Part shown: positions 101 to 31,050 of the stretch, piece by piece
How positions within the stretch are numbered: position 1 is the stretch's first letter
Layout: each line of letters opens with the position of its first letter
Assembly: GCA_039638295.1 (NCBI GenBank)
Contig: JBDIWJ010000015.1
Span: 1 to 31,168 of the forward strand
Direction of reading: 5' to 3'
DNA: 31,168 bases
Origin: Candidatus Phoenicimicrobium oleiphilum
GTDB lineage: Bacteria > Atribacterota > Phoenicimicrobiia > Phoenicimicrobiales > Phoenicimicrobiaceae
Translations under genes and position numbers: made by a program
The notes under the pieces: model-generated
What the model was told of the DNA's origin: nothing
The model's input: the letters and a program-made list of their open reading frames with translations, nothing else
Databases searched by the model: none

Positions 101-336
101 TTACCCAGTTACCCAGTTACCCAGTTATCTGGTTAAGAAAATAAGAAGACAGAAGCCAAATTAGTATCGAATGAAGAAAATAAGAGAAAAAATTAGGGGC
201 GTATGGCATACACCCTAAAACGGGAAGAGTAAAATTCACTTGTAAAACAACTAAAGTTGGCTAATTAATTTAAACTGGCTAACTGGGTAACTGGAGAACT
301 AATGTAATTGGCTAATCGGTCAATTGGTCAATGGGA
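101..336. repeat. Inverted 8-mer tandem-array spacer element with a central degenerate REP-like hairpin
   Basis: (TTACCCAG)x3 plus TTATCTGG at 101-132. Reverse-complement-like units AACTGGCT/AACTGGGT/AATTGGTC at about 273-336. Hairpin TTAGGGGCGTATGGCATACACCCTAA at 193-218. Confidence 0.85.
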
Positions 337-349
337 GAATTAACAAACT

Positions 350-1849
350 ATGGATATTAAATCAAAGATAAAGAAATTACCTGATACAAGCGGAGTATAT
401 TTTTTTAAAGATAAAGAAAATAAGATAATATATATTGGGAAAGCCAGTTCTTTAAAAAGTAGAGTTTCTTCATATTTTAGTAATATTTCAAATTTATCTC
501 CTAAAATAAGTAAAATGATTAAAGAAATAGTAGATATTGAATATATTCCCACTTCTTCTGAAACTGAAGCCCTTATATTAGAAAGTAAAATGATAAAGGA
601 TAATAGCCCATATTATAATACCCAATTCAAAGATGATAAAAGTTATCCCTATATCAAAATAACTATAGGGGAAGACTTTCCTCAAATATTTTTTTATAGA
701 AAAGTTGACCAAGATAGGGAAAATGATAAATCAATATACTTTGGCCCTTTTGTTAACGCAGATGCTACTAGAGAAGTTATAAAAATATTAAGAAGGATAT
801 TTAAAATTAGAGGGTGCAGAAAAAGAAATTTAGAAAAAACTAAAATTTGTTTAGATTATCAAATAGGCTTATGTTCAGGACCTTGTGCCAATATGATTAG
901 TAAAAGTGAGTACCAAAAGAGAGTTAAAGAGATTTGCCTATTTTTAGAAGGAAAACAAAAAAGATTATTATATAGACTTTATCAAGAAATGAAACAAGCA
1001 TCTTACCAATTAAATTATGAAAAAGCAGCAAAGATAAGAGATAAAATAAAATCAATTGAAGAAATATTAGCCAGTTCAAAATTATATTTTCATAGTAAAG
1101 AAAATAAAAATGGATATTTATTAAAAAAAATAAAAGAGGTAGAAGAAAATGAAATTAAGATGGGGGAAAGAGCAATCTATGATTTAAAAGAAAAATTGAA
1201 TTTGAAGATATTACCAGAAAGAATAGAAGCTTTCGATATATCCAATATTCAAGGGGAATTAGCCGTTGGCTCTTTAGTTGTTTTTGAGAAAGGAAGGCCA
1301 AAAAAGAATGATTACCGAAGATTTCGGGTAAAAAGAGTTAAGGTAATTGATGATTATGCTATGTTACAAGAAGTTACAGAAAGAAGATACAGAAGATTAT
1401 TATCTGAAGAAAAAAAATTGCCGGATTTAATCTTAATAGATGGAGGAAAGGGTCAACTTATAGCTGTAAATAGAATATTAAGCAAGCTAAATTTAAAGTT
1501 GCCGATAATAAGTTTAGCTAAAAGAGAAGAGGAAATATTTAAAATTGGAGATAATAAGCCCATAATTTTACCTTCTGATTCGGAGGCTCTTTTTTTAGTT
1601 AAAAGAATTAGAGATGAGGCTCACAGATTTGCGATAACTTATCATAAAAGAATTAGGAATAAAGAATTGCTTGATTCAAAATTGGACATTATACCAGGAA
1701 TTGGGATAAAAAGAAAAAAGTTATTATTAAAATATTTTAAAAGCATAGAAGAAATACAAAATGCTTCTATGGATGAGATAAGTAAAATACCAGGATTTGG
1801 TAAAGGAATAGCTGAAAAAATTAAAACAATTTTGGAGGTAAGAAAATGA
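350..1849 (+). CDS. uvrC: Excinuclease ABC subunit C (short form)
   Basis: GIY-YIG motif GVYFFKD..IIYIGKA, Cys cluster CLDYQIGLCSGPC, UVR motif YEKAAKIRD, RNase H-like RIEAFDISN and LPDLILIDGGKGQL, RIRDEAHRFA, C-terminal HhH motifs IPGIG/IPGFG. Confidence 0.96.
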   Translation: MDIKSKIKKLPDTSGVYFFKDKENKIIYIGKASSLKSRVSSYFSNISNLSPKISKMIKEIVDIEYIPTSSETEALILESKMIKDNSPYYNTQFKDDKSYPYIKITIGEDFPQIFFYRKVDQDRENDKSIYFGPFVNADATREVIKILRRIFKIRGCRKRNLEKTKICLDYQIGLCSGPCANMISKSEYQKRVKEICLFLEGKQKRLLYRLYQEMKQASYQLNYEKAAKIRDKIKSIEEILASSKLYFHSKENKNGYLLKKIKEVEENEIKMGERAIYDLKEKLNLKILPERIEAFDISNIQGELAVGSLVVFEKGRPKKNDYRRFRVKRVKVIDDYAMLQEVTERRYRRLLSEEKKLPDLILIDGGKGQLIAVNRILSKLNLKLPIISLAKREEEIFKIGDNKPIILPSDSEALFLVKRIRDEAHRFAITYHKRIRNKELLDSKLDIIPGIGIKRKKLLLKYFKSIEEIQNASMDEISKIPGFGKGIAEKIKTILEVRK

Positions 1850-2346
1850 TATTAAATTTTCAAGGAAAAAAACCTATAATAGATGAAAAGTCTTTTATCG
1901 CCGAAAATGCTACTATAATTGGAGAGGTTATAATAAAAGAATATGCAAGTATTTGGTATAATGTGGTATTAAGAGGTGATATAGCATCTATTATCATAGG
2001 AGAAAATACGAGTGTCCAGGATGGTAGCATAGTTCATTGTGATATAGGAATATCAACCGTAGTAGGAAATAATGTTACCGTAGGTCATAATGCAGTACTC
2101 CATGCTTGTAAGATTGGAGATAATTCTCTAATTGGAATAGGAGCAGTTGTGCTTGATAAGGCAGAGATAGGAGAAGGAGCAATTGTAGGCGCTGGGGCAA
2201 TAGTAACACCCCGAACTAAAATACCACCCTATTCAATGGCTGTTGGAATACCTGCTAAAGTAGTTAGAAATCTTACCGAAGAAGAAGTCGAAGGTTTAAA
2301 AAGTCATGCAATGGAATATGTGGAATTAATGAAAAAATATAAATAA
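1846..2346 (+). CDS. Gamma carbonic anhydrase family (hexapeptide-repeat) protein
   Basis: IWYNVVLRGD, QDGSIVH and VTVGHNAVLHAC carry the three metal-binding His. ATGA overlap with the uvrC stop. Confidence 0.92.
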   Translation: MILNFQGKKPIIDEKSFIAENATIIGEVIIKEYASIWYNVVLRGDIASIIIGENTSVQDGSIVHCDIGISTVVGNNVTVGHNAVLHACKIGDNSLIGIGAVVLDKAEIGEGAIVGAGAIVTPRTKIPPYSMAVGIPAKVVRNLTEEEVEGLKSHAMEYVELMKKYK

Positions 2347-2349
2347 TTA

Positions 2350-2585
2350 TCGTTTCTCGTGTCTTGTATCTCGTGAATCGTATATCGCATTTTAACGTAT
2401 AGATTATATAATTAATTATAAGTAACTAGTGATGAGTAACGGGTAGTGGTTCGATTAATCGAACCCGATAGATAATTTATTATAAACAATAAAGATCGAA
2501 TAAAATCGACTCCTACGCTGAAAGCCATACTTTTCTAAAAGAAGTTTTTAAACTCGATACTTGATAATAGATATTTGATATTTTT
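2350..2585. repeat. Composite spacer: 7-mer arrays, GTAG REP-like doublet, inverted 7-mer array
   Basis: TCGTTTC TCGTGTC TTGTATC TCGTGAA TCGTATA from 2350; AGTAACT AGTGATG AGTAACG from 2421; GTAG..CTAC palindrome pair 2443-2516; ACTCGAT ACTTGAT AATAGAT ATTTGAT from 2552. Confidence 0.85.
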
Positions 2586-2669
2586 TTATTAATTTATTTG
2601 TAAAATATTTAAAAAAGTGTATATAATAAATAAAATAATTGAAATCCAAAAAGTAGATCAAATGGTAAG

Positions 2670-2745
2670 GTAGGGGCACGATGCATCGTGCCCACAGGAG
2701 AAATTGGGGAATAATATGCGAGGGCACAATTCATTGTGCCCCTAC
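2670..2745. repeat. GTAG-tagged REP-like inverted doublet
   Basis: GTAGGGGCACGATGCATCGTGCCCAC (2670-2695, identical to 21757-21782) and GGGCACAATTCATTGTGCCCCTAC (2722-2745). Confidence 0.88.
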
Positions 2746-2993
2746 AACGTAATTATAACCAAAAAGTTGTAATTTATTATAAAATTATCTACAAGATACT
2801 ATCTATATAACGCGTTAAAAATATTTTTGGCTTTTTGGGGAATAAGCATAAAATGTGTTTTTCAAAAGTACAAAGTGTAAAGAATCAATATATTTTTATA
2901 CTTATCTAATTCAAAGCCCAAAAGCAATAATTGGTAAATTCGGGAATGGGTGAATGGATGAATTAGATAGTTGATCAGCGGGAGTTAAAAATT

Positions 2994-4484
2994 ATGAAAC
3001 ATAAATCAGTTGCTGACCTTGCTTATGAAATATTGAGCAAATATGAAAAACCCTTACATTATCGAAAAATTACCGAAGAATTGATAAAAATAAAACCTTT
3101 AAAAGTTAAAGAACCTTATTATACGGTAAATTCATCTATGAGTGGAGACAAAAGGTTTATGCGGACAAAGAGAGGGATTTGGGGTTTAGTTAAGTGGAAG
3201 TACAAAGATGCTAATATTAAATATTCCCTTACCAGTTATTGCTTAAAAGATGGCACTATGTTCTTGACTAGTTATATGAGACCTTTTTTCCCAAAGGATA
3301 AAAAAATTATTGAAATTACCTTTATCGATAAAGAAGGCATCGAAATTGAAGCGTTAGTAAATAATGAACTTAATTGTATAATTGGGTTGAAAGATTGGTA
3401 TAAAAAAAAGAATTTAAAAGTCAATGATATTATTTTTGTTGGTTTAATCGATTATGATAGAAGGAAATATTTTTTAGTTACTGAAAATGAAACTCTTGCT
3501 GAGCCCCAAGAGGATTTAAGTGAAAAGATATTTAATGTTTTAGAAAAAGAAGGACACCCCCTCTCTTTTAAAGAAATATGCGAAAGAGTATTAGAGGTTG
3601 AAACGAAAGAAAGCAATTTGTTTTATAAATATATTATAGATATTTTAAAAAGGGACTCCAGATTTATTGAAGAGAAAAATGATTTCTGGGGGCTTTTTAA
3701 CTGGTTGAGTGAAGTCGAAAAATTAAAAATTGAACTTTTAAATACTGAGGATAATAGAAAATTTAAACAATTAATTCAAAAAGCATTTAATTTTTTAGGA
3801 TTTGAAACTTCTCTTGTATCTGAAGGAAGAGCATCTTTTATTTTAGCAAAGGCACACTTAGATTATAAGACTTATAATTTAATTATTGATGGTAAGATAT
3901 TGGATAACCAGAGTAAAAGAATACAAAGATATGATTTTTGGAATGAATTAGAAAACGCTAAAGAAAAATATAAAGCAGATTTTTCAATAATCATTTCGGC
4001 AGATTTTAATTATGATAAACTAAGTAAAAAAATAGAAGAATACAAGGTTGTGTTATTTGAGCTAAGATGGTTAGATAGCCTCATAAAAGAACATAATAGA
4101 TTACCATTTTCTCTAAGTAATTTAAAATTAATATTTTTAGATAATAATACTATCGAAAATAATATAAATGAATTGATTGAAAAGAGAAAATTAATTTATT
4201 ATAAAATAAAATTAATTAATATTATGATCAGGGTATTAAATGAAAATAGTAGTAAAAAATTATATCTCAATTTAGAATCATTAACCAAAATTATTAATCA
4301 AAAAAGTTCGGAGTATTTTGAATTCGAAAAAGTATCAGAATCTGAGGTCGAAGAAATAGCCAAAATGCTTTCTTTAGAACCATTTAATATATTACAAATA
4401 ACTGAAATGGGCAGTATTATATTGAATTTTAGACCTGAGTTAGCTAAAAAGAGATTGGAGAAAATAATCAGCGAAATGTTTTAA
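2994..4484 (+). CDS. Multidomain nucleic-acid-binding protein: two HARE-HTH (RNAP delta N-terminal-like) domains, a B3-like barrel and a degenerate Mrr-like nuclease domain
   Basis: 496-aa ORF with GGGAG RBS. Two repeats of the pattern (A/I)xxIL...P(L)x(Y/F)xxI...D.RF.....WGL..W at about aa 1-68 and 173-237. GLKDWYKKKNLKVNDII is B3-like. AFNFLGF...IIDGK...KYKADFSIIISADF is Mrr-like. The CDS is secure; the domain calls are by eye. Confidence 0.65.
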   Translation: MKHKSVADLAYEILSKYEKPLHYRKITEELIKIKPLKVKEPYYTVNSSMSGDKRFMRTKRGIWGLVKWKYKDANIKYSLTSYCLKDGTMFLTSYMRPFFPKDKKIIEITFIDKEGIEIEALVNNELNCIIGLKDWYKKKNLKVNDIIFVGLIDYDRRKYFLVTENETLAEPQEDLSEKIFNVLEKEGHPLSFKEICERVLEVETKESNLFYKYIIDILKRDSRFIEEKNDFWGLFNWLSEVEKLKIELLNTEDNRKFKQLIQKAFNFLGFETSLVSEGRASFILAKAHLDYKTYNLIIDGKILDNQSKRIQRYDFWNELENAKEKYKADFSIIISADFNYDKLSKKIEEYKVVLFELRWLDSLIKEHNRLPFSLSNLKLIFLDNNTIENNINELIEKRKLIYYKIKLINIMIRVLNENSSKKLYLNLESLTKIINQKSSEYFEFEKVSESEVEEIAKMLSLEPFNILQITEMGSIILNFRPELAKKRLEKIISEMF

Positions 4485-4569
4485 TATTTCGTATTGTGTC
4501 TCGAGTATTGCGTACCGCAAAAATCTTACAGGAAAAAACCAGGAGAAAAATAGAAGAAGGAGCAAAATT

Positions 4570-5208
4570 ATGAAAATAAAATGGTTAGGTCATTCTTCAT
4601 TTTTAATTGAAAATAGGAGGGGAATCAAAATTATTACTGACCCCTTTGATGAAACACTCGGCTATAAATTACCTCGAATCAAGGTAAACATTGTTACTGT
4701 GAGTCACGAACATTTCGATCATAATTATGTAAGAGGAGTAAAAGGTAGACCAGTAGTTTTTAAGGGAATAATAAAAAGGGAATCACATAAAATGGAGTTT
4801 AGAGGGATATCATCCTACCATGACAGTGTTTATGGAGCCAAAAGAGGACCTAATACTATATTTGTGATTAAAGCTGATGGGTTGAATTTATGTCATTTGG
4901 GTGATTTAGGACATATTTTGAGCCAAGATAAATTAGCTGAAATTGGTTTAGTGGATATTCTATTTATTCCGGTGGGTGGATTTTACACTATCGATAGTAC
5001 ACAAGCTACGCAGATTGTTAATGATATAAAACCCAAAATTGCTATTCCTATGCATTATAAGACTGAGGCTATTAAATTCTCGATAGATACAGTAGATACC
5101 TTTCTTTTAAATAAAAATAATGTAAAAAGATTAGAATCAAGTGAATTAGAAATTGATAAGGATACTTTGCCCGAAAGTAATCAAATTTATGTTTTACGAT
5201 ATGAATAG
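4570..5208 (+). CDS. MBL-fold metallo-hydrolase
   Basis: WLGHSSF, ITDPF, SHEHFDH, HLGDLG, IPVGG and IPMHY motifs; AAGGAG RBS. Confidence 0.92.
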   Translation: MKIKWLGHSSFLIENRRGIKIITDPFDETLGYKLPRIKVNIVTVSHEHFDHNYVRGVKGRPVVFKGIIKRESHKMEFRGISSYHDSVYGAKRGPNTIFVIKADGLNLCHLGDLGHILSQDKLAEIGLVDILFIPVGGFYTIDSTQATQIVNDIKPKIAIPMHYKTEAIKFSIDTVDTFLLNKNNVKRLESSELEIDKDTLPESNQIYVLRYE

Positions 5209-5322
5209 CAAATCCCCTTCACGGGAGAGGGGATTGCCATGTTCCATATGATAGCTTGCAATCAGAGAACATAATAAATTAATAGACAGGCGAGGCCCCT
5301 GTCTCACTAACGACTATTCACT

Positions 5323-5344
5323 TCCCTGTTTTCACGAGGACAAG
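5323..5344 (+). repeat. 22-nt mini-hairpin repeat, consensus TCCCCGTTTTCACGGGGACA(A/G)G
   Basis: Copies at 5323-5344, 5411-5432 (degenerate), 10203-10224, 15049-15070, 18948-18969 and 21946-21967, all in the same orientation. Confidence 0.8.
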
Positions 5345-5365
5345 ATTCATTAAAGACTAATTTGG

Positions 5366-5394
5366 AGTATCGGAATTTTAAAAATTCCGATACT
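5366..5394. repeat. Perfect palindrome with 14-bp arms
   Basis: AGTATCGGAATTTT-A-AAAATTCCGATACT. Confidence 0.9.
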
Positions 5395-5546: not shown

Positions 5547-5554
5547 ATAAATAA

Positions 5555-7349
<1,795 letters not shown>

Positions 7350-10170: not shown

Positions 10171-10300
10171 TTGAAACATATTTTTCTTTACCCGTTCTAA
10201 GTTCCCCGTTTTCACGGGGACAAGTTTCGAAAGTAAATGTTTAATTGATAAGAAGGATAAGGATAAGATGGAAACAGCGGGAACTTTAAGGGGAAATAAT

Positions 10301-10958: not shown

Positions 10959-10962
10959 AATT

Positions 10963-11316
10963 GCACCGAGTATCGAGCATCGAGTATCGCGTTAAAAAGA
11001 AGGAATTAAAAAACTTAATTCGTATCTCGTATAAAATACATTAACAAGTAATAAGTAATTAGTAACAGGTTACAAGTCATGGGTTATCATCAGCTTCGTA
11101 TGATAACAGGGTTTCTACTGCAAAAGCAGGGGTTTAATTTATCGAACCCGTTTCGGGCCGAATGAATTTGACCCCTACATTAAAACCGGCGTGTTTACGA
11201 AATAGTTTTGAATTTTGAGTTATGGCTTAAACCTTCGTTTTTTTGCTAAATACTTTCTACAGGCTAAATACTACACGCTATATGTTATACTATATACGCA
11301 ATACGATATACGAGAT
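10963..11316. repeat. Composite spacer: 7-mer arrays, REP-like doublet, TTTTGAA array, inverted 7-mer array
   Basis: AGTATCG AGCATCG AGTATCG; ACAAGTA ATAAGTA ATTAGTA from 11044; doublet GCAG..CTAC at 11126-11178; GTTTTGAATTTTGAG at about 11205; CAATACG ATATACG before the thyX RBS. Confidence 0.85.
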
Positions 11317-14891: not shown

Positions 14892-15116
14892 ACAGTTTAC
14901 AGTATCGAGTATATAGTTATTTAGTTAAGAAAGTAAAAAAGAGAGAAAGGTAGGGGGCTTGATTTATCGAGCCCACAAAAAAATTATCAAAATGATACGA
15001 GTTGAATAAATTCGACCCCTACATCAGACAATGCAAAGAAAGTTTTGATCCTCATTTTTATGGGGACAGGATTTTGAATTATGTTTTTTGGTTTTACGTT
15101 TTAAGTTTATAGTTTA
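14892..15116. repeat. Composite spacer: 7-mer array, GTAG REP-like doublet, TTTTGAA array containing a 22-nt insert
   Basis: ACAGTAT CGAGTAT ATAGTTA; doublet 14950-15022; insert 15049-15070. Confidence 0.85.
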
Positions 15117-16107: not shown

Positions 16108-16370
16108 ATTAGTATCTCGTATATCGTAAAGAGAATAAGAGCCAGCAGTGAGAAACAGTTATGTCATTGCGAAGAGTAAAGCGACAAAGCAACCTTAAAC
16201 CGAGATTGCCACCCCCTAATAGAATTAGGGCTCGCAATGACAATTGGAACAAAATGCTTTTTTATTTCTCTAAATATTTACGAGATACTAAATACAAGAT
16301 ACTAGATACGAAATTTCTAACCGCTGCCCGCTATACGCTATACAATATACGAAATACTATATACGAGAAA
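16108..16370. repeat. Inverted 7-mer arrays enclosing a TGTC-tagged palindromic dimer
   Basis: TTAGTATCTCGTA (from 16109) versus TACGAGATACTAA (from 16279); TGTCATTGCGA...TCGCAATGACA at 16162-16242; CGCTATA CGCTATA CAATATA CGAAATA up to 16370. Confidence 0.88.
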
Positions 16371-17016: not shown

Positions 17017-17207
17017 ATTAGTATCTTATATCTCGTGAATCGTATCTCGCTAAGACTGTTAGCCGCTTAGCCAGTTTACCGGTTATCCGATTAAAAAAAT
17101 AATATCAGGCTGGTTAACTGTAACAACTAACTTTTCGTCTTGCAACTGAGAACTTGTATTCGAAATTACTGGCTAGTGTTAACTGGCTAACCGGGCAACT
17201 GGGTAAC
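17017..17207. repeat. 7-mer array plus inverted 8-mer array pair
   Basis: TAGTATC TTATATC TCGTGAA TCGTATC; GTTAGCCG CTTAGCCA GTTTACCG GTTATCCG (from 17058) versus AACTGGCT AACCGGGC AACTGGGT (from 17181). Confidence 0.85.
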
Positions 17208-18845: not shown

Positions 18846-18937
18846 TTAAAGTTTAAAATTGAAAGTGAAAAGCTATATCGGTTAGTTGGTTACTTGGTTA
18901 GTTAGTGCTCTATTAAATAAAGTATGTTATATTTCTA

Positions 18938-19033
18938 GAGATTGCTTCCCCTATTTTCGCAGGGGCAGGCTTACTTTGCTCCTCGCAAAGACAATCGATG
19001 TTATGTCATTGCGAGCGTTAGCGAAGCAATCTC
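18938..19033. repeat. TGTC-tagged palindromic dimer (arranged opposite to the 16162 copy) with a 22-nt insert
   Basis: GAGATTGCTT[insert]C...CTCGCAAAGACA followed by TGTCATTGCGAGCGTTAGCGAAGCAATCTC; 7/8-mer arrays at 18846-18905. Confidence 0.8.
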
Positions 19034-19806: not shown

Positions 19807-20111
19807 TAGTATCGAGTATCGAGTATATAGTATGTAGTAAAGAAAACAAAAGAGAAAAAAGTAGTGGTTTGATTTATCAAACCCGTAAAAAATCCGGGGT
19901 GGATGAATCCGCCCCCTGCATAAAAAACAATACAACACTATAATAAGTTTTGAATTTTAAATTATGGTTTTTAATTTTTCGCTTTAAATTTTTAGTTTTG
20001 ATATAATCAAGATAAATCTGAACGAAATACGACATACGAGTTATTGTAGACTTTAGAGGGGTAGTTCTTTTTCTAAAATCGATACTCGATGCTATATACT
20101 CGATACTGTAT
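19807..20111. repeat. Composite spacer: 7-mer array, REP-like doublet, TTTTGAA array, inverted 7-mer arrays
   Basis: TAGTATC GAGTATC GAGTATA TAGTATG; doublet 19861-19919; T-rich 7-mers at about 19948-20001; CGATACT CGATGCT ATATACT CGATACT from 20080. Confidence 0.87.
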
Positions 20112-20118: not shown

Positions 20119-20147
20119 TTGATAAATTAAAATAAGTAAGTTATAAT
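20119..20147 (+). promoter_or_regulatory. Putative sigma70-type promoter for the pfkB-CBS pair
   Basis: TTGATA-17nt-TATAAT. Confidence 0.6.
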
Positions 20148-21621: not shown

Positions 21622-22033
21622 TTAGTATATAGTGAATAGTAATAAAACGAAAAACAAAGTTCGTATCTCGTATCTCGTGAATCGTATCTCATTGAGAAAT
21701 AAGTATTGAGTATATAGTATCGAGTATATAGTTAAGAAAATAATAATGTATAATATGTAGGGGCACGATGCATCGTGCCCACCAGAAAAATCAAGAAAAA
21801 CCTCGGGTCGGATAAATTCGAACCCTACATTAAAATTACTACTTTATACGAAATATTTTGAATTTTGTATTATAGTTTTTCGCCTTTTGCTTTAAGTTTT
21901 TACTTTAAAAAGGATAGATCAGAACTAATAGACAGGCGAGCCTGTTTCTTGTTTCCACCGGGACAGGCTCCGTATTCACTCCTGAATTCTGATTTTCTTA
22001 ACGAGATACTCGATACGCGATACGATATACTAA
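21622..22033. repeat. Composite spacer: three 7-mer arrays, GTAG doublet, TTTTGAA array, hairpin with 22-nt insert, inverted 7-mer array
   Basis: TCGTATC TCGTATC TCGTGAA TCGTATC from 21661; doublet 21757-21828; ACGAGAT ACTCGAT ACGCGAT ACGATAT from 22001. Confidence 0.88.
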
Positions 22034-22061: not shown

Positions 22062-22733
22062 ATGAAAAAAGGATTATTTATAACCTTTGAAGGACTTGAG
22101 GGTTGCGGTAAAACTACTCAAGCAAAAATGCTTTACAATTATTTAAACAAAAAAGGAATTCCCTCTGTTTTTACTAAAGAACCAGGTGGGACAAAGATAG
22201 GACAAAAGATTCGTAAAATCCTTCTCGACCAGAAAAATGAGGGTATGGCTTATAAAACAGAAATGTTATTATTTTTAGCATCTCGAGCTGAAAATGTTAG
22301 ATTAGTGATATTGCCTGCCTTAGAAGAAGGAAAAATAGTGATATCAGATCGCTTTTGCGATTCAACCACTGCTTACCAGGGTTATGGGAGAGGTATAGAT
22401 CTTAAAATTATTGAGCATCTTAATAATTTAGTTATCGGAAAAGTTATCCCAGATATAACTTTTTTTTTGGATATTGAACCACAAGAGGGATTAAAAAGGT
22501 CAACTACCTTTAGCAATTCTCGAGAAATACGATTTGAAGAGGAATTTATTAATAAAAAAATTATAGATGGTAAATTATTTTTAGAAAGAGTTAGAGATGG
22601 ATATTATCAGTTATTACGAGAAGAAAAAAGAAGAATTAAGATAATTAATGCTAATAGAAGCAAAGAAGAAATATTTGAAGAAATAGTAAAAATTGTAAAC
22701 AAAAAATTAACCATATCTCGTAAATTAAAGTAG
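22062..22733 (+). CDS. tmk: Thymidylate kinase
   Basis: FITFEGLEGCGKTTQ, KEPGGT, SDRF..ST.AYQGYGRG. Confidence 0.97.
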   Translation: MKKGLFITFEGLEGCGKTTQAKMLYNYLNKKGIPSVFTKEPGGTKIGQKIRKILLDQKNEGMAYKTEMLLFLASRAENVRLVILPALEEGKIVISDRFCDSTTAYQGYGRGIDLKIIEHLNNLVIGKVIPDITFFLDIEPQEGLKRSTTFSNSREIRFEEEFINKKIIDGKLFLERVRDGYYQLLREEKRRIKIINANRSKEEIFEEIVKIVNKKLTISRKLK

Positions 22734-22976
22734 GAGCTAGGAGCCAGAATCCAGAAGCCAGAATAAAATCGTATCGCGTATTGAGTATCGTGTAGAACAG
22801 AATAACAAAAATAAAAAAGTTTACAGAAATCAGGAAACAGAATACAGTATTTGGAATTATCTTAAATTATAAGGCTATATTTTGTATTAAGTTATTTTAT
22901 ATTCTTCTGACTTCTGACTACTGGCTCCTGAATTCTTAAATAATAATTATATTTTTTCGCTTTAATTTTTTAGTTT
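22731..22976. repeat. Inverted CAGAAGC/TTCTGAC 7-mer array pair with nested 7-mer arrays
   Basis: TAGGAGC TAGGAGC CAGAATC CAGAAGC CAGAATA versus TTCTGAC TTCTGAC TACTGGC TCCTGAA at about 22904-22933. Confidence 0.87.
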
Positions 22977-23010
22977 AAATGAAATCGGGAACAAAAATAA
23001 AGGAGTTGTT

Positions 23011-24018
23011 ATGTCCTTTAAAAATATTATCGGTCAAGAAAAAGCTATAAATATATTATTAAAATCTCTAAAAGAGGAAAAAATATTTCCATCATATATA
23101 TTTATGGGAGACGATGGGGTAGGTAAGAAATCTACTGCTGTAGAATTTGCTAAAGCTATAAATTGTTTAAATTTAAGTAGCGATTTTGAAGTATGTGAAA
23201 GTTGTAGTTCGTGTAATAAAATTAATAAACTGTGCTCTCCAGATCTAAAAATTATCGAACCAATTAAAGGGTCAATAAGAATTGAACAAATAAGAGAATT
23301 ACGACGTGAAGTTAATTTAAAACCTTTTGAAAATAGGAAAAAAATATATATTATTGACCAGGCAGAGGAAATGACTCTTGAAGCCTCAAATTGTCTATTA
23401 AAAACTATTGAAGAACCTCCCGATTATGCAATAATAATTTTAATTTGTACTAACCTTGATTCTATTTTGCCTACAATAGTTTCCCGGTGTCAATTAATAA
23501 AATTTAGGTTAATAGATTATTTGAAAATTATGGAGACAGTTTTATTAAATAAAATAAATTTAGAAAAAGGTAAAGCAGAATTGATTTCTAAATTGGCTCA
23601 GGGGAGTATAGGTAAGGCCTTAAAATTGGTATCAGATAAAGAATATTTTAATAGAAGAGAAAAAATACTCAATTACCTGACTTTAATTTTACCTGGAAAA
23701 TACAATAGTAATTTAATTACAAATATGGAAAAAATATTAACAGATATGAATAAGACAGAAGAAACATTAGATATAATATTATTTTGGTACCGTGATATCT
23801 TATTAGTTAAAGAATTGAGAATTCAAAAATATATTTTAAATGTAGATAAGCTAAAGATTATTAAAGAAAAATCAAAAGTATATTCCCGGGAAATGTTAAT
23901 TGATATCTTGGATTATATCGAACAAATTCAGGAATTTATGAAAAAAAATATAAATAAACGTCTTATTTTGGAAAGATTATATTTAAAGATGGTAGGTGTA
24001 GAATATTGCCTAAAGTAA
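23011..24018 (+). CDS. holB: DNA polymerase III subunit delta-prime
   Basis: IIGQ, GDDGVGK, Zn module CESCSSC, ASNCLLKTIEEPP, ILPTIVSRCQ; lies between tmk and yaaT. Confidence 0.93.
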   Translation: MSFKNIIGQEKAINILLKSLKEEKIFPSYIFMGDDGVGKKSTAVEFAKAINCLNLSSDFEVCESCSSCNKINKLCSPDLKIIEPIKGSIRIEQIRELRREVNLKPFENRKKIYIIDQAEEMTLEASNCLLKTIEEPPDYAIIILICTNLDSILPTIVSRCQLIKFRLIDYLKIMETVLLNKINLEKGKAELISKLAQGSIGKALKLVSDKEYFNRREKILNYLTLILPGKYNSNLITNMEKILTDMNKTEETLDIILFWYRDILLVKELRIQKYILNVDKLKIIKEKSKVYSREMLIDILDYIEQIQEFMKKNINKRLILERLYLKMVGVEYCLK

Positions 24019-24901: not shown

Positions 24902-24965
24902 TAACTGGATAACTGGCAAACAGGGTAACTATTATATATGCAAAACGCGATACGAGATACAAGAT
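24902..24965. repeat. Right-arm-type 8-mer and 7-mer arrays running up to the start codon
   Basis: TAACTGGA TAACTGGC AAACAGGG TAACT; ACGCGAT ACGAGAT ACAAGAT then ATG. Confidence 0.75.
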
Positions 24966-25655
24966 ATGATTAAACTTAATAGCAACGAAAGAATAGAAGA
25001 TTTGGAATATAAAGGATTAAAGATTATTCAGTCAAGGGATTCTTACCGTTTTTCGGTAGATTCTATTTTATTAGCAAATTTTATTAGAGTTAAAAACTAT
25101 GAAAAAGTTATAGACTTGGGAACAGGTAGTGGAATAATTCCCCTTCTATTATATGACAGAAAAAAGGGTTTATCTATTTATGGTATTGAGATCCAAGAAC
25201 AATTAGCAAATATGGCAAAAAGAAGCGTAGAATTAAATAAACTACAAAACCATATAACTATAATTCAAGAAGACTTAAAAAATATAAAAAAGATTTTTAG
25301 AAATAGTCAATTTGATGTAGTAATAAGTAATCCTCCCTATATTTCACTGGGAGATGGGAAGATAAGTCCTTTAAGTAGTAAAGCTATTGCTCGCCATGAG
25401 ATTAAATGCGATATAGAGGATATAATTTCTACAAGTAATTATTTACTAAAAAATAAAGGAAGGATTTATTTAATATATAAAAGTATTAAATTAATAAAGG
25501 TAATTGTTACTCTTAAAAAATATGACATCCAACCAAAATCTATTAAGTTCATCCATTCTTGTCCAGATGAACAGGCCAATTTAGTTTTATTAGAAGGAAT
25601 GAAGGGTGGGAAAGAAGAATTAAAAATAGAACCTCCTCTATTTCTCAAAAAATAA
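24966..25655 (+). CDS. YabB-like tRNA1(Val) A37-N6 methyltransferase family protein
   Basis: [31 protein letters not shown]; lies between yaaT and rsmI. Confidence 0.88.
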   Translation: MIKLNSNERIEDLEYKGLKIIQSRDSYRFSVDSILLANFIRVKNYEKVIDLGTGSGIIPLLLYDRKKGLSIYGIEIQEQLANMAKRSVELNKLQNHITIIQEDLKNIKKIFRNSQFDVVISNPPYISLGDGKISPLSSKAIARHEIKCDIEDIISTSNYLLKNKGRIYLIYKSIKLIKVIVTLKKYDIQPKSIKFIHSCPDEQANLVLLEGMKGGKEELKIEPPLFLKK

Positions 25656-25684: not shown

Positions 25685-26557
25685 GTGAAGAAGAATAATC
25701 AATTGGAAAGAACTTTATATATTTGCGGAACACCTATCGGGAATTTAGAAGACATCACTTTAAGAGCTTTAAATATCTTAAAAAAAGTAGAATTAATTGC
25801 CGCAGAGGATACAAGACATACCCAAAAATTATTAAGACATTACCGGATAAATACGCCAATTACCAGTTATTATGAGCATAACAAATTTAAAAAAGCTCCC
25901 TATTTAATAGAAAAAATAAGAAACGGTCAAAAAATTGCTTTAGTTTCTGATGCAGGTATGCCTGGGATTTCTGACCCAGGATATTTTTTAATAAACTTAG
26001 CTTTGAAGAATGATATAAAAATAGTACCTATACCTGGCGTTTCTGCCTTGATAACAGCTTTAGTAGTTTCTGGATTACCTTCAGATCGTTTTATTTTTGA
26101 AGGCTTTTTACCTCGCAAATGTACAGAAAGGAAGAAATATTTTCGTAAAATAGAAAATGAAAATAGGACTCTTATTTTTTACGAAGCTCCTCACAGACTT
26201 AAAAGAACCCTTAAAGATATGTTAGAGGTATGGGGAGATAGAAAAATTGTTGTAGCTCGGGAACTAACCAAGAAGTATGAAGAGGTACTAAGAGGCGAAA
26301 TAAGCCAAATTCTAAAAGAGCTGGAAAATAGAAAAGTAAAGGGAGAAATTACCTTAGTAGTAGAGGGCAATACCAGAGAGAAAGAAAATGAGGAAAGTAG
26401 TTTAATAAAAAGAGACAAAAAAATAGAAGAGTTTTTAAAAGAATTAATATTACAAGAATATTCTAATAGGGAAATAATAAAAATAGCACAAGAAAAACTA
26501 AATATACCAAAAAATGTTATATATAAAAAATTATTGGAAATAAAAGATAGTGGATAG
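25685..26557 (+). CDS. rsmI: 16S rRNA C1402 2'-O-methyltransferase
   Basis: TPIGNLEDIT.RAL, AEDTRHT, VSDAGMPGISDPG, FYEAPHR, ARELTK. Confidence 0.97.
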   Translation: MKKNNQLERTLYICGTPIGNLEDITLRALNILKKVELIAAEDTRHTQKLLRHYRINTPITSYYEHNKFKKAPYLIEKIRNGQKIALVSDAGMPGISDPGYFLINLALKNDIKIVPIPGVSALITALVVSGLPSDRFIFEGFLPRKCTERKKYFRKIENENRTLIFYEAPHRLKRTLKDMLEVWGDRKIVVARELTKKYEEVLRGEISQILKELENRKVKGEITLVVEGNTREKENEESSLIKRDKKIEEFLKELILQEYSNREIIKIAQEKLNIPKNVIYKKLLEIKDSG

Positions 26558-26797
26558 CATTTAGCGTATAGCGTATAGCATATAGTAAGAAAAGAAGAAG
26601 TCAGATGTCAGAAACCAGAAGCCAAGTTTGTATCTCGTATCTCGTGAATCATATCTCGTAAATAAGATAGAAGACAGAATATTAAATAGAACGTATCGTG
26701 TATAATTAGTTAGCTAATGAATTAGCATTAAACCAGCTAATTAGCTAACTAAACAACCAACTAAACGATATAGCTTTTAGTTTTAAGTTTTTAATTT
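26547..26797. repeat. Composite spacer with several array families and an internal inverted repeat
   Basis: ATAGCGT-type units x6 (26547-26588); CAGATGT CAGAAAC CAGAAGC; TCGTATC TCGTGAA; TTAGTTAGCTAAT/ATTAGCTAACTAA (26706-26718/26740-26752); TTTTAAG-type units. Confidence 0.85.
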
Positions 26798-26824
26798 AGT
26801 AGTTTATACGAAATTGAAAGGTGG

Positions 26825-28759
26825 ATGATTATGAAAGAAAATAATTTATCTAAAAAAACATTTTATATTACTACTCCTATTTACTATGTAAATGATGTTC
26901 CTCATATTGGACATGCCTATACTACTATAGCCGCGGACGTTATTGCTCGATACAAGAGGCTATCCGATTATGATGTACTTTTTTCAACAGGTACAGATGA
27001 ACATGGCCAAAAGATTGCCCGTTCTGCAGAAAAAGTAAATTTAACTCCCTTGGAATTAGCAGATAAAGTGGTATTGCAATTTAAAAATCTTTGGCCCTTA
27101 CTAAACATACAGTATGATGATTTTATTCGTACAACTGAACCGAGACATGTTAAAGTGGTACAGAGAATATTTAATAAATTATACGAAAAAGGGGATATTT
27201 ATAAAGGTGAATATGAGGGTTGGTATTGTGTTCCCTGCGAAACATTCTGGACTGAAACTCAATTGACTGATAAAACTTGTCCTAGTTGTGGTAGGAAAAT
27301 AGAAAAGATAAAAGAAGAAAGTTATTTCTTTAAAATGTCCAAGTATCAAGAACAACTTTTATCTTACATTGAAGATAACCCTGAATGTATTCAGCCAGAA
27401 GTAAGAAAAAATGAAATTATAAGTTTCATTAAAAGTGGGCTCAAGGATCAAAGTGTTACTAGGACAAAGAAGAGTTTACAATGGGGGATAAATGTACCAT
27501 TTGATAATAACCATGTAATTTATGTATGGTATGATGCGTTGATTAATTATTTAACGGTTGCAGGGTATGATATAGATGAGGAAAAATTTAAAAAATATTG
27601 GCCTGCAGATATCCATTTAGTAGGTAAAGATATTTTAAGATTTCATACAATTATTTGGTTTACTATGTTAATGGCAGCTGGAATTAAGCCACCTAAGATG
27701 GTCTTTGCGCATGGCTGGTGGACTATAGAGGGAGAAAAAATGTCAAAATCTAAAGGGAATGTGGTAGATCCTTATGAAATGGTAAAAGAATTTGGAGCTG
27801 ATGTATTCAGATATTTTTTAATGAGAGAAGTTTCCTTTGGACAAGACGGTAATTTTTCTAAAGATTTATTAATTAAAAGAATAAATTATGACCTGGCTAA
27901 TGATTTAGGAAATTTGGTAAGCAGAACAATAGCAATGATTACTCAGTACTTTAATAAGGAAATTCCCCAGCCAGAAACAACAAGTAGAGAAACATACGAT
28001 ATAGAGTTAAAAAATTTTGCTTTAAAGACTATTAAAAAGTATTATACTCAAATGAATAATTTAGCTCTTAATACAGCCCTAGAGAGTATTTGGCAATTCA
28101 TAAGAAGAACTAATAAATATATTGACCAAACAGAACCCTGGATATTAGGTCGTGATAATTCACGAAAGGGAAGATTATCAACTATTCTTTATAATTTAGC
28201 TGAATCAATACGCCTATCCACTATTTTAATTTATCCTTTTATGCCAGTAAAAGCCCAAGAAATTTGGAGACAGTTAGGATTAGAAAGTGATTTAAGTAAA
28301 ATAAGATTGGAGAAAGAAGCTCATTGGGGAAATTTGCAGCCAGGTATTTTAGTTAAACCCGGAGAAGTTATTTTTCCTCGAATTGATACTAATAAAAAAG
28401 TAACCAAAGAAATAGAAGAAAAAGAAAAGGAAAAAGAAATTATATCTTATGAAGAGTTTAAGAAAATTGATTTAAGAGTGGGAAAAATTATTCAAGCTGA
28501 ACCAGTAAGTGGAACAGATAAGCTACTCAAATTGAAAATAAATTTAGGTAAAGAGGTAAGAACTATTGTAGCCGGGGTAAGAAAACATTATTCTGCAGAG
28601 GATATTTTAGGGAAGAAAATTGTAATAGTATATAATTTAAAACCTACAAAAATTAGAGGGATAGAGTCTCAAGGTATGCTTTTAGCTGCAGTTGATAACC
28701 ACGATGTAGTATTAATAACCGTAGACAAGGATATAACGGAAGGCAGCAAAGTGCAGTAA
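26825..28759 (+). CDS. metG: Methionine--tRNA ligase
   Basis: TTPIYYVN..PHIGH, GTDEHGQK, CVPC/CPSC knuckle, KMSKS, C-terminal tRNA-binding OB domain. Start could be 26831. Confidence 0.99.
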   Translation: MIMKENNLSKKTFYITTPIYYVNDVPHIGHAYTTIAADVIARYKRLSDYDVLFSTGTDEHGQKIARSAEKVNLTPLELADKVVLQFKNLWPLLNIQYDDFIRTTEPRHVKVVQRIFNKLYEKGDIYKGEYEGWYCVPCETFWTETQLTDKTCPSCGRKIEKIKEESYFFKMSKYQEQLLSYIEDNPECIQPEVRKNEIISFIKSGLKDQSVTRTKKSLQWGINVPFDNNHVIYVWYDALINYLTVAGYDIDEEKFKKYWPADIHLVGKDILRFHTIIWFTMLMAAGIKPPKMVFAHGWWTIEGEKMSKSKGNVVDPYEMVKEFGADVFRYFLMREVSFGQDGNFSKDLLIKRINYDLANDLGNLVSRTIAMITQYFNKEIPQPETTSRETYDIELKNFALKTIKKYYTQMNNLALNTALESIWQFIRRTNKYIDQTEPWILGRDNSRKGRLSTILYNLAESIRLSTILIYPFMPVKAQEIWRQLGLESDLSKIRLEKEAHWGNLQPGILVKPGEVIFPRIDTNKKVTKEIEEKEKEKEIISYEEFKKIDLRVGKIIQAEPVSGTDKLLKLKINLGKEVRTIVAGVRKHYSAEDILGKKIVIVYNLKPTKIRGIESQGMLLAAVDNHDVVLITVDKDITEGSKVQ

Positions 28760-28821
28760 ACGATGAAAGATTGTTTCTTTAGAGAATAAGGTGTAGATTG
28801 AAAATTTAAGGAGGGATATTT

Positions 28822-29676
28822 ATGTCTAATGAAAAAACTAAAGGAGAAAAATATAATATATCAAATTCATTTAGAGAAAATATTAACAGAAATCTGGGAT
28901 TGATATTCATAATTTTTATGTTTACTATTGTTGTCTTATTTATTACCTTACAAATAAGGGTTAATGACTTAAATATACAAACAGAAAAACAGATTGAGAA
29001 TATTAACCAAAACAATGAAAAAATAATTAGTAAAATAGAAGATCTATATAAAGAAATAAAACAATATAGCCAGGTAAAAATAGATAGAGAACAATTTACT
29101 GAAATTTATATGCAATTACAAGAATTAACCGGGATGATTTCTAACGAAGTAAAAAGAGAATTTTATATAACCAAAATTGTAGGAATCATTTCCCAGAGCA
29201 ATAAAACATTGCAGAGTAAAGAAATATATGAAATTGCTAAAACTATATACGAAGAATCTATAAAATATAATTTCAATCCTTTGTTAGTGACTGCTATAAT
29301 AAAAATCGAAAGTAATTTCGATCCTAAAGCAATTTCTGATTCTTACGCTTATGGATTGTGTCAGGTAAGAAGATTTATAGCTCCAGAATTAGCAGATAAG
29401 ATTGGTGTTGAATGGGATGGGGCGGAAAAAACCTTGTTTGATCCTATAAAAAATATTAAAATTGGAGTTTATTATTTATCTATGTTAAATAGGGACTTTG
29501 ATAATATTAAGACTGCTATTATTGCCTACAATCAAGGTCCTTATAGCGTACAGGAAAATCTTGCTAAAAATAATGAATTAAATCAAAGTTATGCAAATAA
29601 GGTGTTAGATTACTATGCTAGTTTAAGAGGATTTAGTATGGAAGAAATACAAAATGAAATAAAGTCTACTGACTAA
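28822..29676 (+). CDS. Membrane-anchored lytic transglycosylase (SLT domain) with coiled-coil stalk
   Basis: Hydrophobic segment LGLIFIIFMFTIVVLFITL; SLT motifs IIKIESNFDP, AYGLCQV, AYNQGP; GGAGG RBS. Confidence 0.88.
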   Translation: MSNEKTKGEKYNISNSFRENINRNLGLIFIIFMFTIVVLFITLQIRVNDLNIQTEKQIENINQNNEKIISKIEDLYKEIKQYSQVKIDREQFTEIYMQLQELTGMISNEVKREFYITKIVGIISQSNKTLQSKEIYEIAKTIYEESIKYNFNPLLVTAIIKIESNFDPKAISDSYAYGLCQVRRFIAPELADKIGVEWDGAEKTLFDPIKNIKIGVYYLSMLNRDFDNIKTAIIAYNQGPYSVQENLAKNNELNQSYANKVLDYYASLRGFSMEEIQNEIKSTD

Positions 29677-29692
29677 TAATCAATCTAATTAA

Positions 29693-29946
29693 ATTAGTCG
29701 TTAGTGAATAGTGAATACTCATTAGTATTAAATAAAGGTTTATAGTTTTCAGTTAATAATTTTAAGATGAAAATTAATTTAAATATCCAGTTACTCAATC
29801 AATTTAGTTAACTAATTTGATTTTATTTCCTTAACTAAATAACTATGCAATCGGTAACCAGTTAACTAATACTTAACGAGATACGAAATTAGCTTCTGAC
29901 TTCTATTTTCTTAACACGATACTCGATACGTAATACGAAATACTAA
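29693..29946. repeat. Composite spacer of 7/8-mer arrays
   Basis: TAGTCGT TAGTGAA TAGTGAA on the left; TAACTAAA TAACTATG, ACGAGATACGAAAT, TTCTGAC TTCT, and ACACGAT ACTCGAT ACGTAAT ACGAAAT on the right. Confidence 0.82.
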
Positions 29947-29954
29947 ATTTCTTA

Positions 29955-29983
29955 TTGTAAAGAGCATAAAGAAGTGATATAAT
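29955..29983 (+). promoter_or_regulatory. Putative sigma70-type promoter for the riboswitch-ribU transcript
   Basis: TTGTAA-17nt-TATAAT with TG extended -10, just upstream of the riboswitch. Confidence 0.65.
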
Positions 29984-30010
29984 TACTAAAAAATAGAATA
30001 TTAGAAATTA

Positions 30011-30203
30011 TACTTTTTCGGGGCAGGGTGAGGTTAAATTTAAGTTAACCAATTCCCGATCGGTGGTAAATTCTTTAGTTGTTTTAACAACTATGGAATG
30101 AGCCCACGAGTCAATTACTTATAACAGAAATACACCTATGAATTTATGACAGATCTGGTGGAAAGCCAGAGCCGACAGTAAAGTCTGGAAGGAAGAAAAA
30201 GTA
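30011..30203 (+). ncRNA. FMN riboswitch (RFN element)
   Basis: TTCGGGGCAGGGTGA..ATTCCCGATCGGTGGTA..AGCCCACGA..CAGATCTGGTG..CCAGAGCCGACAGTAAAGTCTGGA..GAAAAAGTA; P1 TACTTTTTC/GAAAAAGTA; sits upstream of an ECF S component. Confidence 0.96.
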
Positions 30204-30218
30204 ATTTGTTTTAGAAAG

Positions 30219-30263
30219 AAATATCCCCGAAAAGTAAAAAATCTTCGGGGATATTTTATTTTT
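30219..30263 (+). terminator. Riboswitch expression-platform terminator
   Basis: AAATATCCCCGAA/TTCGGGGATATTT followed by a T-rich tail. The 5' arm CCCCGAAAAGTA is complementary to the aptamer 5' end, giving an antiterminator. Confidence 0.88.
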
Positions 30264-30351
30264 AAGAAATATTTTTAAAGTAAAAAGTGAATAAAATTTT
30301 TATTCAAGTAAAAAATGAAAAATTCAAGTAAAAATTAAAAGGAGAATCGTT

Positions 30352-30882
30352 ATGAAAAGTACAAAGATCACCAGTATTTCCATATTAGTAGCTTTATCTA
30401 TAGTAGCCGGATATTTTATTCATTTTCCAATTTTACCTCAAGCTCCCTTTTTGCTATATGACCCAGGGAGTGTATTTCTTCTAATTGGTTCTTTCAAATT
30501 AGGACCCAAAACTGGCATACTAATGTGCTTTATTACTGCAATACTCTTTGCTCTTATTACCGGGCAAGGAGGACCTTATGGTGCTTTGATGAATTTCTTG
30601 GCAACTGGTACCCTGGTATTTATTTCTTCTCAAATTTATTTCTTATATCACACTAAGAAGGGAGCTATTTTTGGTATGTTCCTGGGAACCCTAACAATGA
30701 CTTTGATAATGATTCCAGCTAATCTGATAATAACCCCACTATATCTAGGTGTTCAAAGAGAAATTGTAGTTAAAATGTTAATTCCTGCCATTATTCCTTT
30801 TAATCTTTTAAAGGGAATTATTAGTGGGTTTTTAACTTTCATTTTGTATAAAAGACTATATCCTTTAATAATTAGTAAGTAA
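30352..30882 (+). CDS. ribU: ECF transporter S component, riboflavin-specific
   Basis: Hydrophobic protein; FPILPQAPFLLYDP, ANLIITPLYLG, IIPFNLLKG; controlled by an FMN riboswitch. Confidence 0.9.
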   Translation: MKSTKITSISILVALSIVAGYFIHFPILPQAPFLLYDPGSVFLLIGSFKLGPKTGILMCFITAILFALITGQGGPYGALMNFLATGTLVFISSQIYFLYHTKKGAIFGMFLGTLTMTLIMIPANLIITPLYLGVQREIVVKMLIPAIIPFNLLKGIISGFLTFILYKRLYPLIISK

Positions 30883-30899
30883 ATTGTGTTATTTATTTT

Positions 30900-30928
30900 T
30901 TGATAAATTAACAAAATAATTATATAAT
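30900..30928 (+). promoter_or_regulatory. Putative sigma70-type promoter
   Basis: TTGATA-17nt-TATAAT. Confidence 0.55.
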
Positions 30929-30954
30929 GATTGTAACCCAAAAAGTAAGCAAAT

Positions 30955-31050
30955 GGGCTCGATGAAGCGAGCCCCTACACGTTACATATTACGCATTACG
31001 CATTACTGTATCCTATACGCGATACGCAATACTTAATACGCGATACGAAA
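30955..31050. repeat. Single REP-like hairpin (CTAC end) plus right-arm 7-mer arrays
   Basis: GGGCTCGATGAAGCGAGCCCCTAC; ATTACGC ATTACGC; CTATACG CGATACG CAATACT TAATACG CGATACG directly before AAGGAGG. Confidence 0.82.

Follow-up and report, generated by a model that had tools for sequence, protein, structure and literature searches.

Why are most of the longer gaps between the housekeeping genes of a bacterial gene run occupied by short tandem repeats that face each other? The question is raised by a contig of 31,168 nucleotides (JBDIWJ010000015.1, G000:C15 in our numbering) of Candidatus Phoenicimicrobium oleiphilum (Atribacterota), which was analysed in its entirety and is called the window below. 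It belongs to an assembly of 1.65 Mb with 33% GC that is 91% complete, and it carries a co-directional run of housekeeping genes from uvrC to metG, followed by an SLT gene and an energy-coupling factor (ECF) S component behind an FMN riboswitch. A preliminary description had noted inward-facing arrays of degenerate 7- and 8-nt units in the spacers of this run. We find that these arrays match the arms at either end of a small cassette, which is promoterless and encodes a four-helix-bundle protein (PF05635/TIGR02436). They are likely the emptied, nested and recombined remains of this cassette, spread by DNA-level copying that probably proceeds via the arms.

Genes were called with a custom dicodon script (1496 genes), and the 917 spacers of the genome, 670 of which have at least 100 bp, were searched for lag-period arrays and compared with dinucleotide shuffles. 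There were 175 arrays of period 7 as opposed to 1.0 in the shuffles, and 110 of period 8 as opposed to 0.3. Period 14, a harmonic, was found 87 times, period 11 14 times and period 4 11 times; every other period occurred at most 6 times (2-4 times for 5, 6, 9, 10 and 13). The density is about 0.006 arrays per kb in coding sequences versus 0.77 per kb in spacers. In other words, the arrays are real and strongly non-random. Stop codons in all frames were considered as the source of periods 7 and 8 and rejected as a general cause, since TCGTATC, GAGTATC, CAGAAGT and GTTACCCA contain no stop. A family could be assigned to 277 of 443 arrays. F1 has units of the form KMGTATH (TCGTATC, GAGTATC, GCGTATC, TAGCGTA), F2 has TAGTGAA/TAGTCGT, F2b has TAAGTAA/TGAGTAA (AGTAAC-type), F3 has CAGAAGC-like units, F4 has the 8-mers GTTACCCA and GTTAGCTG, and F5 is the TTTTGAA family.

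It is conspicuous that the arrays are polar. Concordant cases (forward on the left or reverse on the right) outnumber discordant ones in every scored family, i.e. 110:12 in F1, 26:2 in F2, 18:4 in F2b, 17:4 in F3 and 74:10 in F4; the sign was set per family after inspection, which fixes one bit each and not the ratios. The trend is alike in ++ and -- spacers. A scan with arm profiles, which gave 0 F1-F4 matches on base-shuffled spacers, located 556 arms in 268 of the 917 spacers, and within a spacer the forward arm lay ahead of the reverse arm 265 times, with the opposite order seen 5 times. The first arm is a median of 5 nt away from the upstream stop (within 15 nt in 117 of 176 cases, overlapping the stop in 39 of 176), and the last arm is a median of 32 nt away from the next start. 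Pairs of arms from two families are nested (7 cases), never crossing (0) or side by side (0). The polarity, the placement at the spacer ends and the nesting order given in the preliminary description are thus borne out genome-wide.

Its statement that nearly every spacer carries such an element applies to the long spacers of the window and not to the genome. The window has 21 regions (20 spacers of at least 40 bp and the 5' end, nine further junctions being below 40 bp), 15 of which carry arms at the strict cut-off and 17 when cassette-flank matching is added; genome-wide, arms occur in 255 of the 670 spacers of at least 100 bp. By spacer type the figures are 225/586 for tandem, 23/58 for divergent and 7/26 for convergent spacers, and some divergent spacers may conceal small genes because a custom script was used for gene calling. 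Incomplete sets are common, with a single orientation in 154 of the 268 arm spacers and a same-family facing pair in 73. Composites are also shared, as 341 of 809 spacers have at least 60 bp in common with another spacer. We also note that genes adjoining arm spacers have a lower GC content at third codon positions (median 0.242 vs 0.262), which may reflect a preference of arms for core or long-resident regions.

Two PF05635/TIGR02436 genes are intact in this genome, the first enclosed by F1 arms and the second by F3 arms, and a third, enclosed by F2 arms, is internally deleted; DNA profiles detected two further 5' remnants with the same deletion junction, 2 kb apart and inverted. The nearest named record of the protein comes from an Atribacterota metagenome-assembled genome (89% identity). 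The structure match is PDB 2GSC (E 1e-22), which is a homopentamer of unknown function according to the accessible part of PMC4990558. Neither a four-helix-bundle gene nor a coding remnant of one was found in the window with protein and DNA profiles at E<=0.01, and the preliminary description, which mentioned heptamer arms around such genes elsewhere, had seen no such gene either. The link to these genes is supported. Among 71 four-helix-bundle loci examined in the family, 64 had full flanks, and these carry a forward arm on the left in 52 cases, a reverse arm on the right in 52, both in 50 and both from one family in 48.

The units are clade-specific. On a tree of 67 of the 71 proteins the arm label changes 7 times, compared with 34.3 in shuffles and a minimum of 5, which shows co-inheritance rather than binding because kin cluster. 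Five subclades of F1 each have a unit of their own, and in 26 of 28 cases the pairing of arms was better inside a subclade than between subclades. F5 was identified as the right arm plus the 3' end of another protein clade (loci L091 and L092). Right arms extend into the last codons and the stop of the open reading frame (ORF), and such ORF ends occur in gene-less spacers; cassette flanks match 18 of the 21 window regions as opposed to 5 of 21 reversed controls. All five unit families are arms of PF05635/TIGR02436 cassettes, each protein clade having its own unit. In a clade with AAACTAT-like units (L041, L047, L073 and L079, all at one site), a direct repeat (GACCGAAGGGAG) is found at both gene ends and the arms do not face each other, unlike those of other clades.

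The ratio of nonsynonymous to synonymous substitutions (dN/dS) is 0.10-0.35 in ten protein clades, which indicates that the four-helix-bundle proteins are under purifying selection (rows containing N were excluded here, from the filled-cassette stem set and from the gene-less pairing tests below). Intact genes are always co-directional with host genes (41/41 and 35/35), whereas gene-less remnants are found in both orientations (92 sense, 55 antisense, i.e. 37% antisense). This fits read-through expression of intact copies and orientation-blind copying or flipping of husks.

Occupancy of the sites is polymorphic. In twenty syntenic stretches from 19 relatives the long window spacers vary from 2 to about 500 bp and the tight junctions are constant. 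Relative L007 has an intact gene in rsmI-metG, a frameshifted gene in prmC-ptp and an internally deleted gene in the spacer between upp and the dCMP deaminase gene. The prmC-ptp spacer is also filled in L066, with an intact gene, and rsmI-metG is filled in L051 and L092 by two protein clades with different arms, its short alleles being 2 bp in L016 and 6 bp in L006. Intact, frameshifted, internally deleted and gene-less states at orthologous sites form a decay series, and the suggestion that the window holds cargo-less members of an element class is upheld by it. Altogether, the 41 mapped loci lie behind 20 different upstream genes, those of the GCGTATC clade (87-97% identical) at 4 sites; a count by flank blastn (35 groups among the 71 loci) was set aside in favour of this mapping, as repeats common to the flanks blurred it. 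Fifteen orthologous sites lack the gene in this genome, and 13 of them carry arms at the cut-off.

Five genomes of a sister family served as an outgroup. Their spacers are 17-40 bp in tmk-holB, 2-35 bp in prmC-ptp, 44-73 bp in rpiB-upp and -23 to 23 bp in CBS-tmk, and these compact junctions imply that the window versions there are gains. Inspection by eye showed that composites recur at non-orthologous sites: the interior of rsmI-metG, as a near-identical composite, in tmk-holB of L023, and that of upp-dCMP deaminase, as a similar one, in prmC-ptp of L008. The 3' remnant of one clade was found in three genomes, in a different spacer each time and once reversed. Unit copy number differs in unit steps between orthologous cassettes. 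Arms have also invaded the final codons of host genes, where they supply the stop and alter C-termini among relatives (the tmk 3' end in L008, L016 and L023; G000:C43:3690-3758); a 4-bp spacer at G000:C43:3758 was considered as a pristine empty site and rejected as eroded, given arm-like sequence in the upstream gene end.

One further allele may be present in X1, one of four RNA runs that were all available as contigs; its depth is flat across genes and spacers, and it looks like DNA. A joint 22722->23000 in tmk-holB has a depth of 5.2 as opposed to 29.4 for the spacer contig, with 30 letters per side and no shared letters, in one contig of one run. This assembly bubble (window 22693-23029) reads as a second tmk-holB allele with the same flanks and a different interior, and a precise loop-out was rejected in its favour. 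Other X1 joints have sides below 30 letters and are repeat artefacts.

Of the family's 30 genomes, 27 have the gene. By families in our numbering, it is found in 19/21 genomes of f1, 15/20 of f2, 4/9 of f6 and 0/21 of the four others (f3, f4, f5, f7); F1 triplets occur in 21/21 of f1, 12/20 of f2 and 0/30 of the remaining genomes. The only other genome of the genus, G001 (L004), has 2 F1 triplets as opposed to 60 here and shorter spacers, and has retained the gene, which means either recent loss or a burst in the lineage of the window genome. The spacer content of these housekeeping operons thus turns over fast. Beyond the phylum, a scan of 3/64 parts of the collection gave 80 loci, 69 of them with sufficient flank. 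Arrays lie on the left in 50, on the right in 46 and on both sides in 36, and inverted matching units were found in 27 of these 36, compared with 0.8 for swapped partners and 2/68 for control windows.

How such remains could arise may be outlined as follows. The cassette consists of a 7/8-mer arm, an A-rich leader, the four-helix-bundle ORF and an inverted arm. As a selfish element, it would land directly past a stop codon and be expressed by host transcription, and new copies would enter the interior of older ones, from which the 265:5 order and the lack of side-by-side pairs would follow. Deletion would then strip the ORF and often one arm, and gene conversion or inversion between arms may move and flip the husks. 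In this proposal, the protein would recognise and bind the unit of its own arms and, together with host recombination functions, would promote insertion. It is possible, if on balance rather doubtful, that this amounts to a new class of transposase-less mobile element, whose protein would recognise its own 7/8-mer unit and drive insertion past stops and into earlier copies; each clade with its unit would be a separate family, and polar heptamers and the ORF-bearing intervening sequences (IVS) of rRNA would be its footprints.

Several findings weigh against the derivation of the arrays from a mobile cassette. No transposase, recombinase or reverse transcriptase (RT) accompanies the cassette, and neither a target-site duplication (TSD) nor a clean pre-insertion allele was found in orthologous spacers, the shortest alleles looking like independent deletions. 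Compactness in the outgroup does not extend to upp-dCMP deaminase (51-469 bp) and rsmI-metG (67-199 bp). Clade-specific units are also expected from plain co-inheritance, and binding is not implied; kin are not independent; 11 of the 67 tree rows have no F1-F4 arm (some have F5 or other units, some are one-sided), and of the 69 cross-phylum loci, 33 have no array on one side or on both at the threshold used. The two remnants with the same junction may be a local duplication. Moreover, 556 arms stand against 2 intact genes in this genome, and G011, G012 and G038 hold many arrays yet no detected gene, so that the ORF may have played no part in the multiplication of most arms.

The same imbalance, about 280 arms per gene, would also suit a history in which the arrays are older than the genes, having grown by slippage as satellites with a polarity from stop to ribosome-binding site (RBS), and the four-helix-bundle genes are passengers that dropped in between. 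The stepwise variation of copy number between orthologous cassettes and the three genomes with arrays and no detected gene are consistent with it. However, the unit follows the protein clade and not the site, with two clades carrying different arms to a single site; right arms extend into the final codons and stop of the ORF, and gene-less spacers hold such ends; and slippage gives no reason for the order of 265 to 5 across families. We therefore regard satellites as quite improbable precursors. Somewhat less improbable, though still unlikely, is that each spacer is kept as an RNA stem, which would remove the insert from the polycistronic mRNA by looping or serve as a substrate of RNase III and thereby tune downstream expression, an idea that goes back to the preliminary description. 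For 51 of 54 filled cassettes, an end-to-end stem of at least 20 bp is predicted; in the window, z<=-2 is reached by 11 of the 17 regions with arms (12-25 shuffles per region) and by 0 of the 3 without, and RNase III is encoded in the genome. In Coxiella, the accessible part of PMC4990558 describes tandem GACAGAT heptamers before the S23p ORF of a 23S rRNA IVS, with an RNase III cut at the first repeat. Yet the antisense strand folds equally well (50 of 54 filled cassettes), and in 75 gene-less pairs the better duplex was sense in 38 and antisense in 36 (p=0.72; G.U strand test, no bias). The own partner beat a same-family arm from another spacer in only 31 of 74 gene-less cases, and it did better than a foreign arm in 32 of 54 filled cassettes (p=0.15). 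The one-sided spacers (154 of 268) and armed divergent spacers (23 of 58) also speak against upkeep of a stem per locus. Inner hairpins of repetitive extragenic palindromes (REPs) contribute to the regional z-scores, and long-range pairing is stronger than in any shuffle for 1 of 20 window regions. In rhomboid-pfkB, looping would not join stop and RBS, because a sigma-70-like promoter match (20119..20147, + strand; a consensus match only, conserved in orthologous spacers) is located beyond the right arm and ahead of the next gene. By these predictions, gene-less copies show no sign of RNA-level upkeep, which narrows regulatory readings.

The cassette might instead move via folded RNA, with an Avd-like protein binding the arms and an RT acting in trans to make the DNA copy. 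Avd binds RNA and RT, the protein has a weak match to Avd NF033474 (24-36 bits), and both the constant sense orientation of intact genes and the predicted end-to-end stem would agree with such a route. Against it, the Avd cut-off is 80 bits, no reverse transcriptase (PF00078) was found in this genome, 37% of the remnants are antisense and pairing is without strand bias, and we consider this as doubtful as satellites preceding the genes. Finally, REP-associated tyrosine transposases (RAYTs) could move the composites and take the arms along as flanking sequence. GTAG-type, REP-like ends, defined by ad hoc motifs, are enriched in arm spacers (59/255 vs 40/415 arm-free; odds ratio 2.8), 65 of 74 lie within the arm polarity, in line with the early remark that arms enclose REP-like pairs, and the sharing of sequence among spacers would be accounted for. 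Nevertheless, 196 of the 255 arm spacers have no GTAG-type end, and the REPs look like later lodgers because they lie inside arms. The single Y1 transposase gene of the genome is flanked by unrelated inverted repeats, neither GTAG nor arms, no GTAG-flanked RAYT was found in this 91% complete assembly, and among the top Y1 loci of relatives 10 of 10 examined are without F1-F4 arms. RAYT activity thus seems very improbable as the driving force. The Y1 transposase-like gene of this genome (L093:1367-2430; G000:C23) is flanked by repeated AAAGGTGCCAGGCACCTTT palindromes, which are not of the GTAG type. General traffic in small genes, another early suggestion, finds no support, since 7 genes are bracketed by a forward-left and a reverse-right arm and close same-family arms occur only at the two four-helix-bundle genes; the GxxExxY cargo mentioned there (PF13366) is likewise not found in the 91% complete genome.

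The arms of the window are arranged as follows. Upstream of uvrC, a composite at 100..348 (fold z -6.8) has the F4 unit GTTACCCA forward at 100-131 and reverse at 276-299 and 309-348. The composite at 2350..2979 has F1 forward 2350-2391, F2b forward 2420-2447, F1 reverse 2552-2595, a GTAG palindrome module from 2670 and F4 reverse 2932-2979; parts of it are common to 64 other spacers, and its GTAG module recurs at G000:C43:166-609. In the window, GTAG-tagged palindromes occur as inner hairpins only (2670, 14945, 21757). Orphan arms are found at the stop of the HARE-HTH gene (4482..4516, + strand, F1 forward; profile and cassette-flank match) and at 5303..5323 (- strand, F2 TAGTGAA/TAGTCGT reverse, 19/19 to an L031 arm). 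In the pyrG-stop region, 7180..7337, an F1 forward arm overlaps the pyrG stop (7195) and a near-palindromic F4 pair follows (7243-7282 / 7301-7337). The tdk-thyX composite, 10961..11313, has F1 forward, F2b forward 11046-11087, F5 reverse 11203-11228 and F1 reverse 11272-11313, the orthologous spacer varying from 6 to 437 bp across relatives. In prmC-ptp, 14892..15115, F1 forward (14892-14944), a GTAG pair and F5 reverse (15071-15115) were identified, and in rpiB-upp, 16110..16366 (fold z -7.3), F1 forward (16110-16137) and two F1 reverse arms (16277-16311, 16318-16366). The upp-dCMP deaminase composite, 17019..17207, consists of F1 forward, F4 forward 17058-17089 and F4 reverse 17176-17207.

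The wecB-rhomboid spacer has an F4 forward arm (18887..18906, + strand; array and cassette-flank match) and is 89% identical over 190 bp to another spacer. In rhomboid-pfkB, 19807..20108, F1 forward (19807-19841), a GTAG pair, F5 reverse and F1 reverse (20081-20108) are present, and an arm of the F5 (TTTTGAA) family at 19942..19998 (+ strand) is 91% identical over 57 nt to the final codons, stop and right arm of the L091 four-helix-bundle gene. CBS-tmk, 21661..22032, carries two F1 forward arms, a GTAG pair, F5 reverse 21855-21902, F3 reverse and F1 reverse 21998-22032. In tmk-holB, 22731..22976, there are F3 (CAGAAGC) forward 22731-22765, F1 forward, F3 forward, F3 reverse 22903-22937 and F5 reverse 22954-22976, with 3-361 bp across relatives. 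Right-hand arms only are seen at 24906..24969 (- strand; F4 reverse, F1 reverse) and at 30974..31048 (- strand; arrays and profiles), the latter ahead of the RBS of the last, partial gene. The rsmI-metG composite, 26550..26798, has an F1 (TAGCGTA) forward arm that covers the stop, followed by F3 forward, F1 (TCGTATC) forward 26624-26662, an F4 pair and F5 reverse 26773-26798. SLT-ribU, 29695..29945, has F2 forward 29695-29729 (95% over 43 nt to an L031 arm) and F1 reverse 29918-29945, with a promoter match and the FMN riboswitch located downstream. The latter (RF00050, 94.9 bits, 30010-30204, ahead of the ECF S component) is ordinary and gave the only Rfam match in the window. The 496-aa protein encoded at 2994-4484 has a Pfam match to an N-terminal HARE-HTH only. 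A palindromic family that starts with TGTCATTGCGA and ends near GCAATC lies inside or beside arms (16163-16250, 18935-19032), without an Rfam match. Small TTCCCCGTTTTCACGGGGAC-like and ACAGGCGAGACGCCTGT-like palindromes occur at 5217-5345, 10195-10225, 18948-18970 and 21930-21970 and are also seen in relatives, in many cases within arms and, in intact cassettes (L084, L085), even in the stretch from the left arm to the ATG.

Two subjects meet in these spacers, namely abundant intergenic heptamer repeats, so far without an origin, and PF05635 proteins without a function. Within the genome family, all stages of decay can be seen at orthologous sites, and about ten protein clades each have a unit of their own, which makes the question of origin testable. 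Polar heptamers and the rRNA version of the cassette are already published; new here are the mapping of clades to units, the 265:5 order, the filled alleles of window spacers, the contrast of sense and antisense orientation and the negative RNA-level tests. A literature search, in which subscription titles were thinly covered, gave no paper tying such arms to this gene family outside rRNA.

Among known systems, the cyanobacterial short tandemly repeated repetitive (STRR) sequences are another polar intergenic heptamer repeat. The accessible parts of two papers describe GGGAATC repeats in Xanthomonas and Nostoc, which are intergenic with stop/start polarity and convergent pairs (PMC4692102), and TAACTGA repeats in Beggiatoaceae, which are polar to starts (PMC4679880). 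As in the window, these are 7-nt intergenic tandem units with one strand past stops, the other before starts, and convergent pairs; unlike them, the arrays studied here belong to at least five unit families, include 8-mers, are nested, have no G-tracts and are each tied to a protein clade. Both papers, in the parts accessible, interpret their heptamers as quadruplex or regulator sites, and "four helix" has 0 occurrences in their main texts. The GTAG REPs and REPINs (PMC3733652, seen in part) resemble the repeated intergenic GTAG-tagged palindrome pairs inside many of our composites, which here are inner lodgers, absent from most arm spacers, in which the arms are tandem units and no GTAG-flanked RAYT is found. 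The accessory protein Avd of diversity-generating retroelements (DGRs) is related by a distant family match (NF033474, E 1e-5 to 5e-9), which is below the cut-off, and the cassette has no RT, template repeat or variable repeat context. MITEs (miniature inverted-repeat transposable elements) are gene-less derivatives with inverted ends that outnumber coding copies. The same excess of gene-less copies with inverted ends is seen here, but the ends are tandem arrays, no TSD could be defined, the ORF is not a transposase, and copies nest and chimerise; moreover, no cognate transposase shares the ends, as only four-helix-bundle genes are closely armed and the examined Y1 genes are unarmed.

The ORF-bearing IVS in 23S rRNA of Coxiella and Leptospira, as far as described in the accessible part of PMC4990558, are alike in their PF05635 protein, complementary ends, heptamers by the ORF start and decay of the ORF with the ends kept. 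The arms and mapped cassettes described here differ in that they lie between protein-coding genes and not in an rRNA helix, and in that many clades share a genome, each with its own unit and with hundreds of gene-less nested copies. A PF05635/TIGR02436 ORF between such ends is present in the filled alleles, whereas the window copies are without the ORF; similarly, a basal stem is predicted in 51 of the 54 filled cassettes, while a same-family facing pair remains in 73 of the 268 arm spacers only. Should the more doubtful reading as a new class of mobile element be true, this class would be widespread, and its footprints would include both the ORF-bearing rRNA IVS and the polar heptamer repeats known from bacteria.

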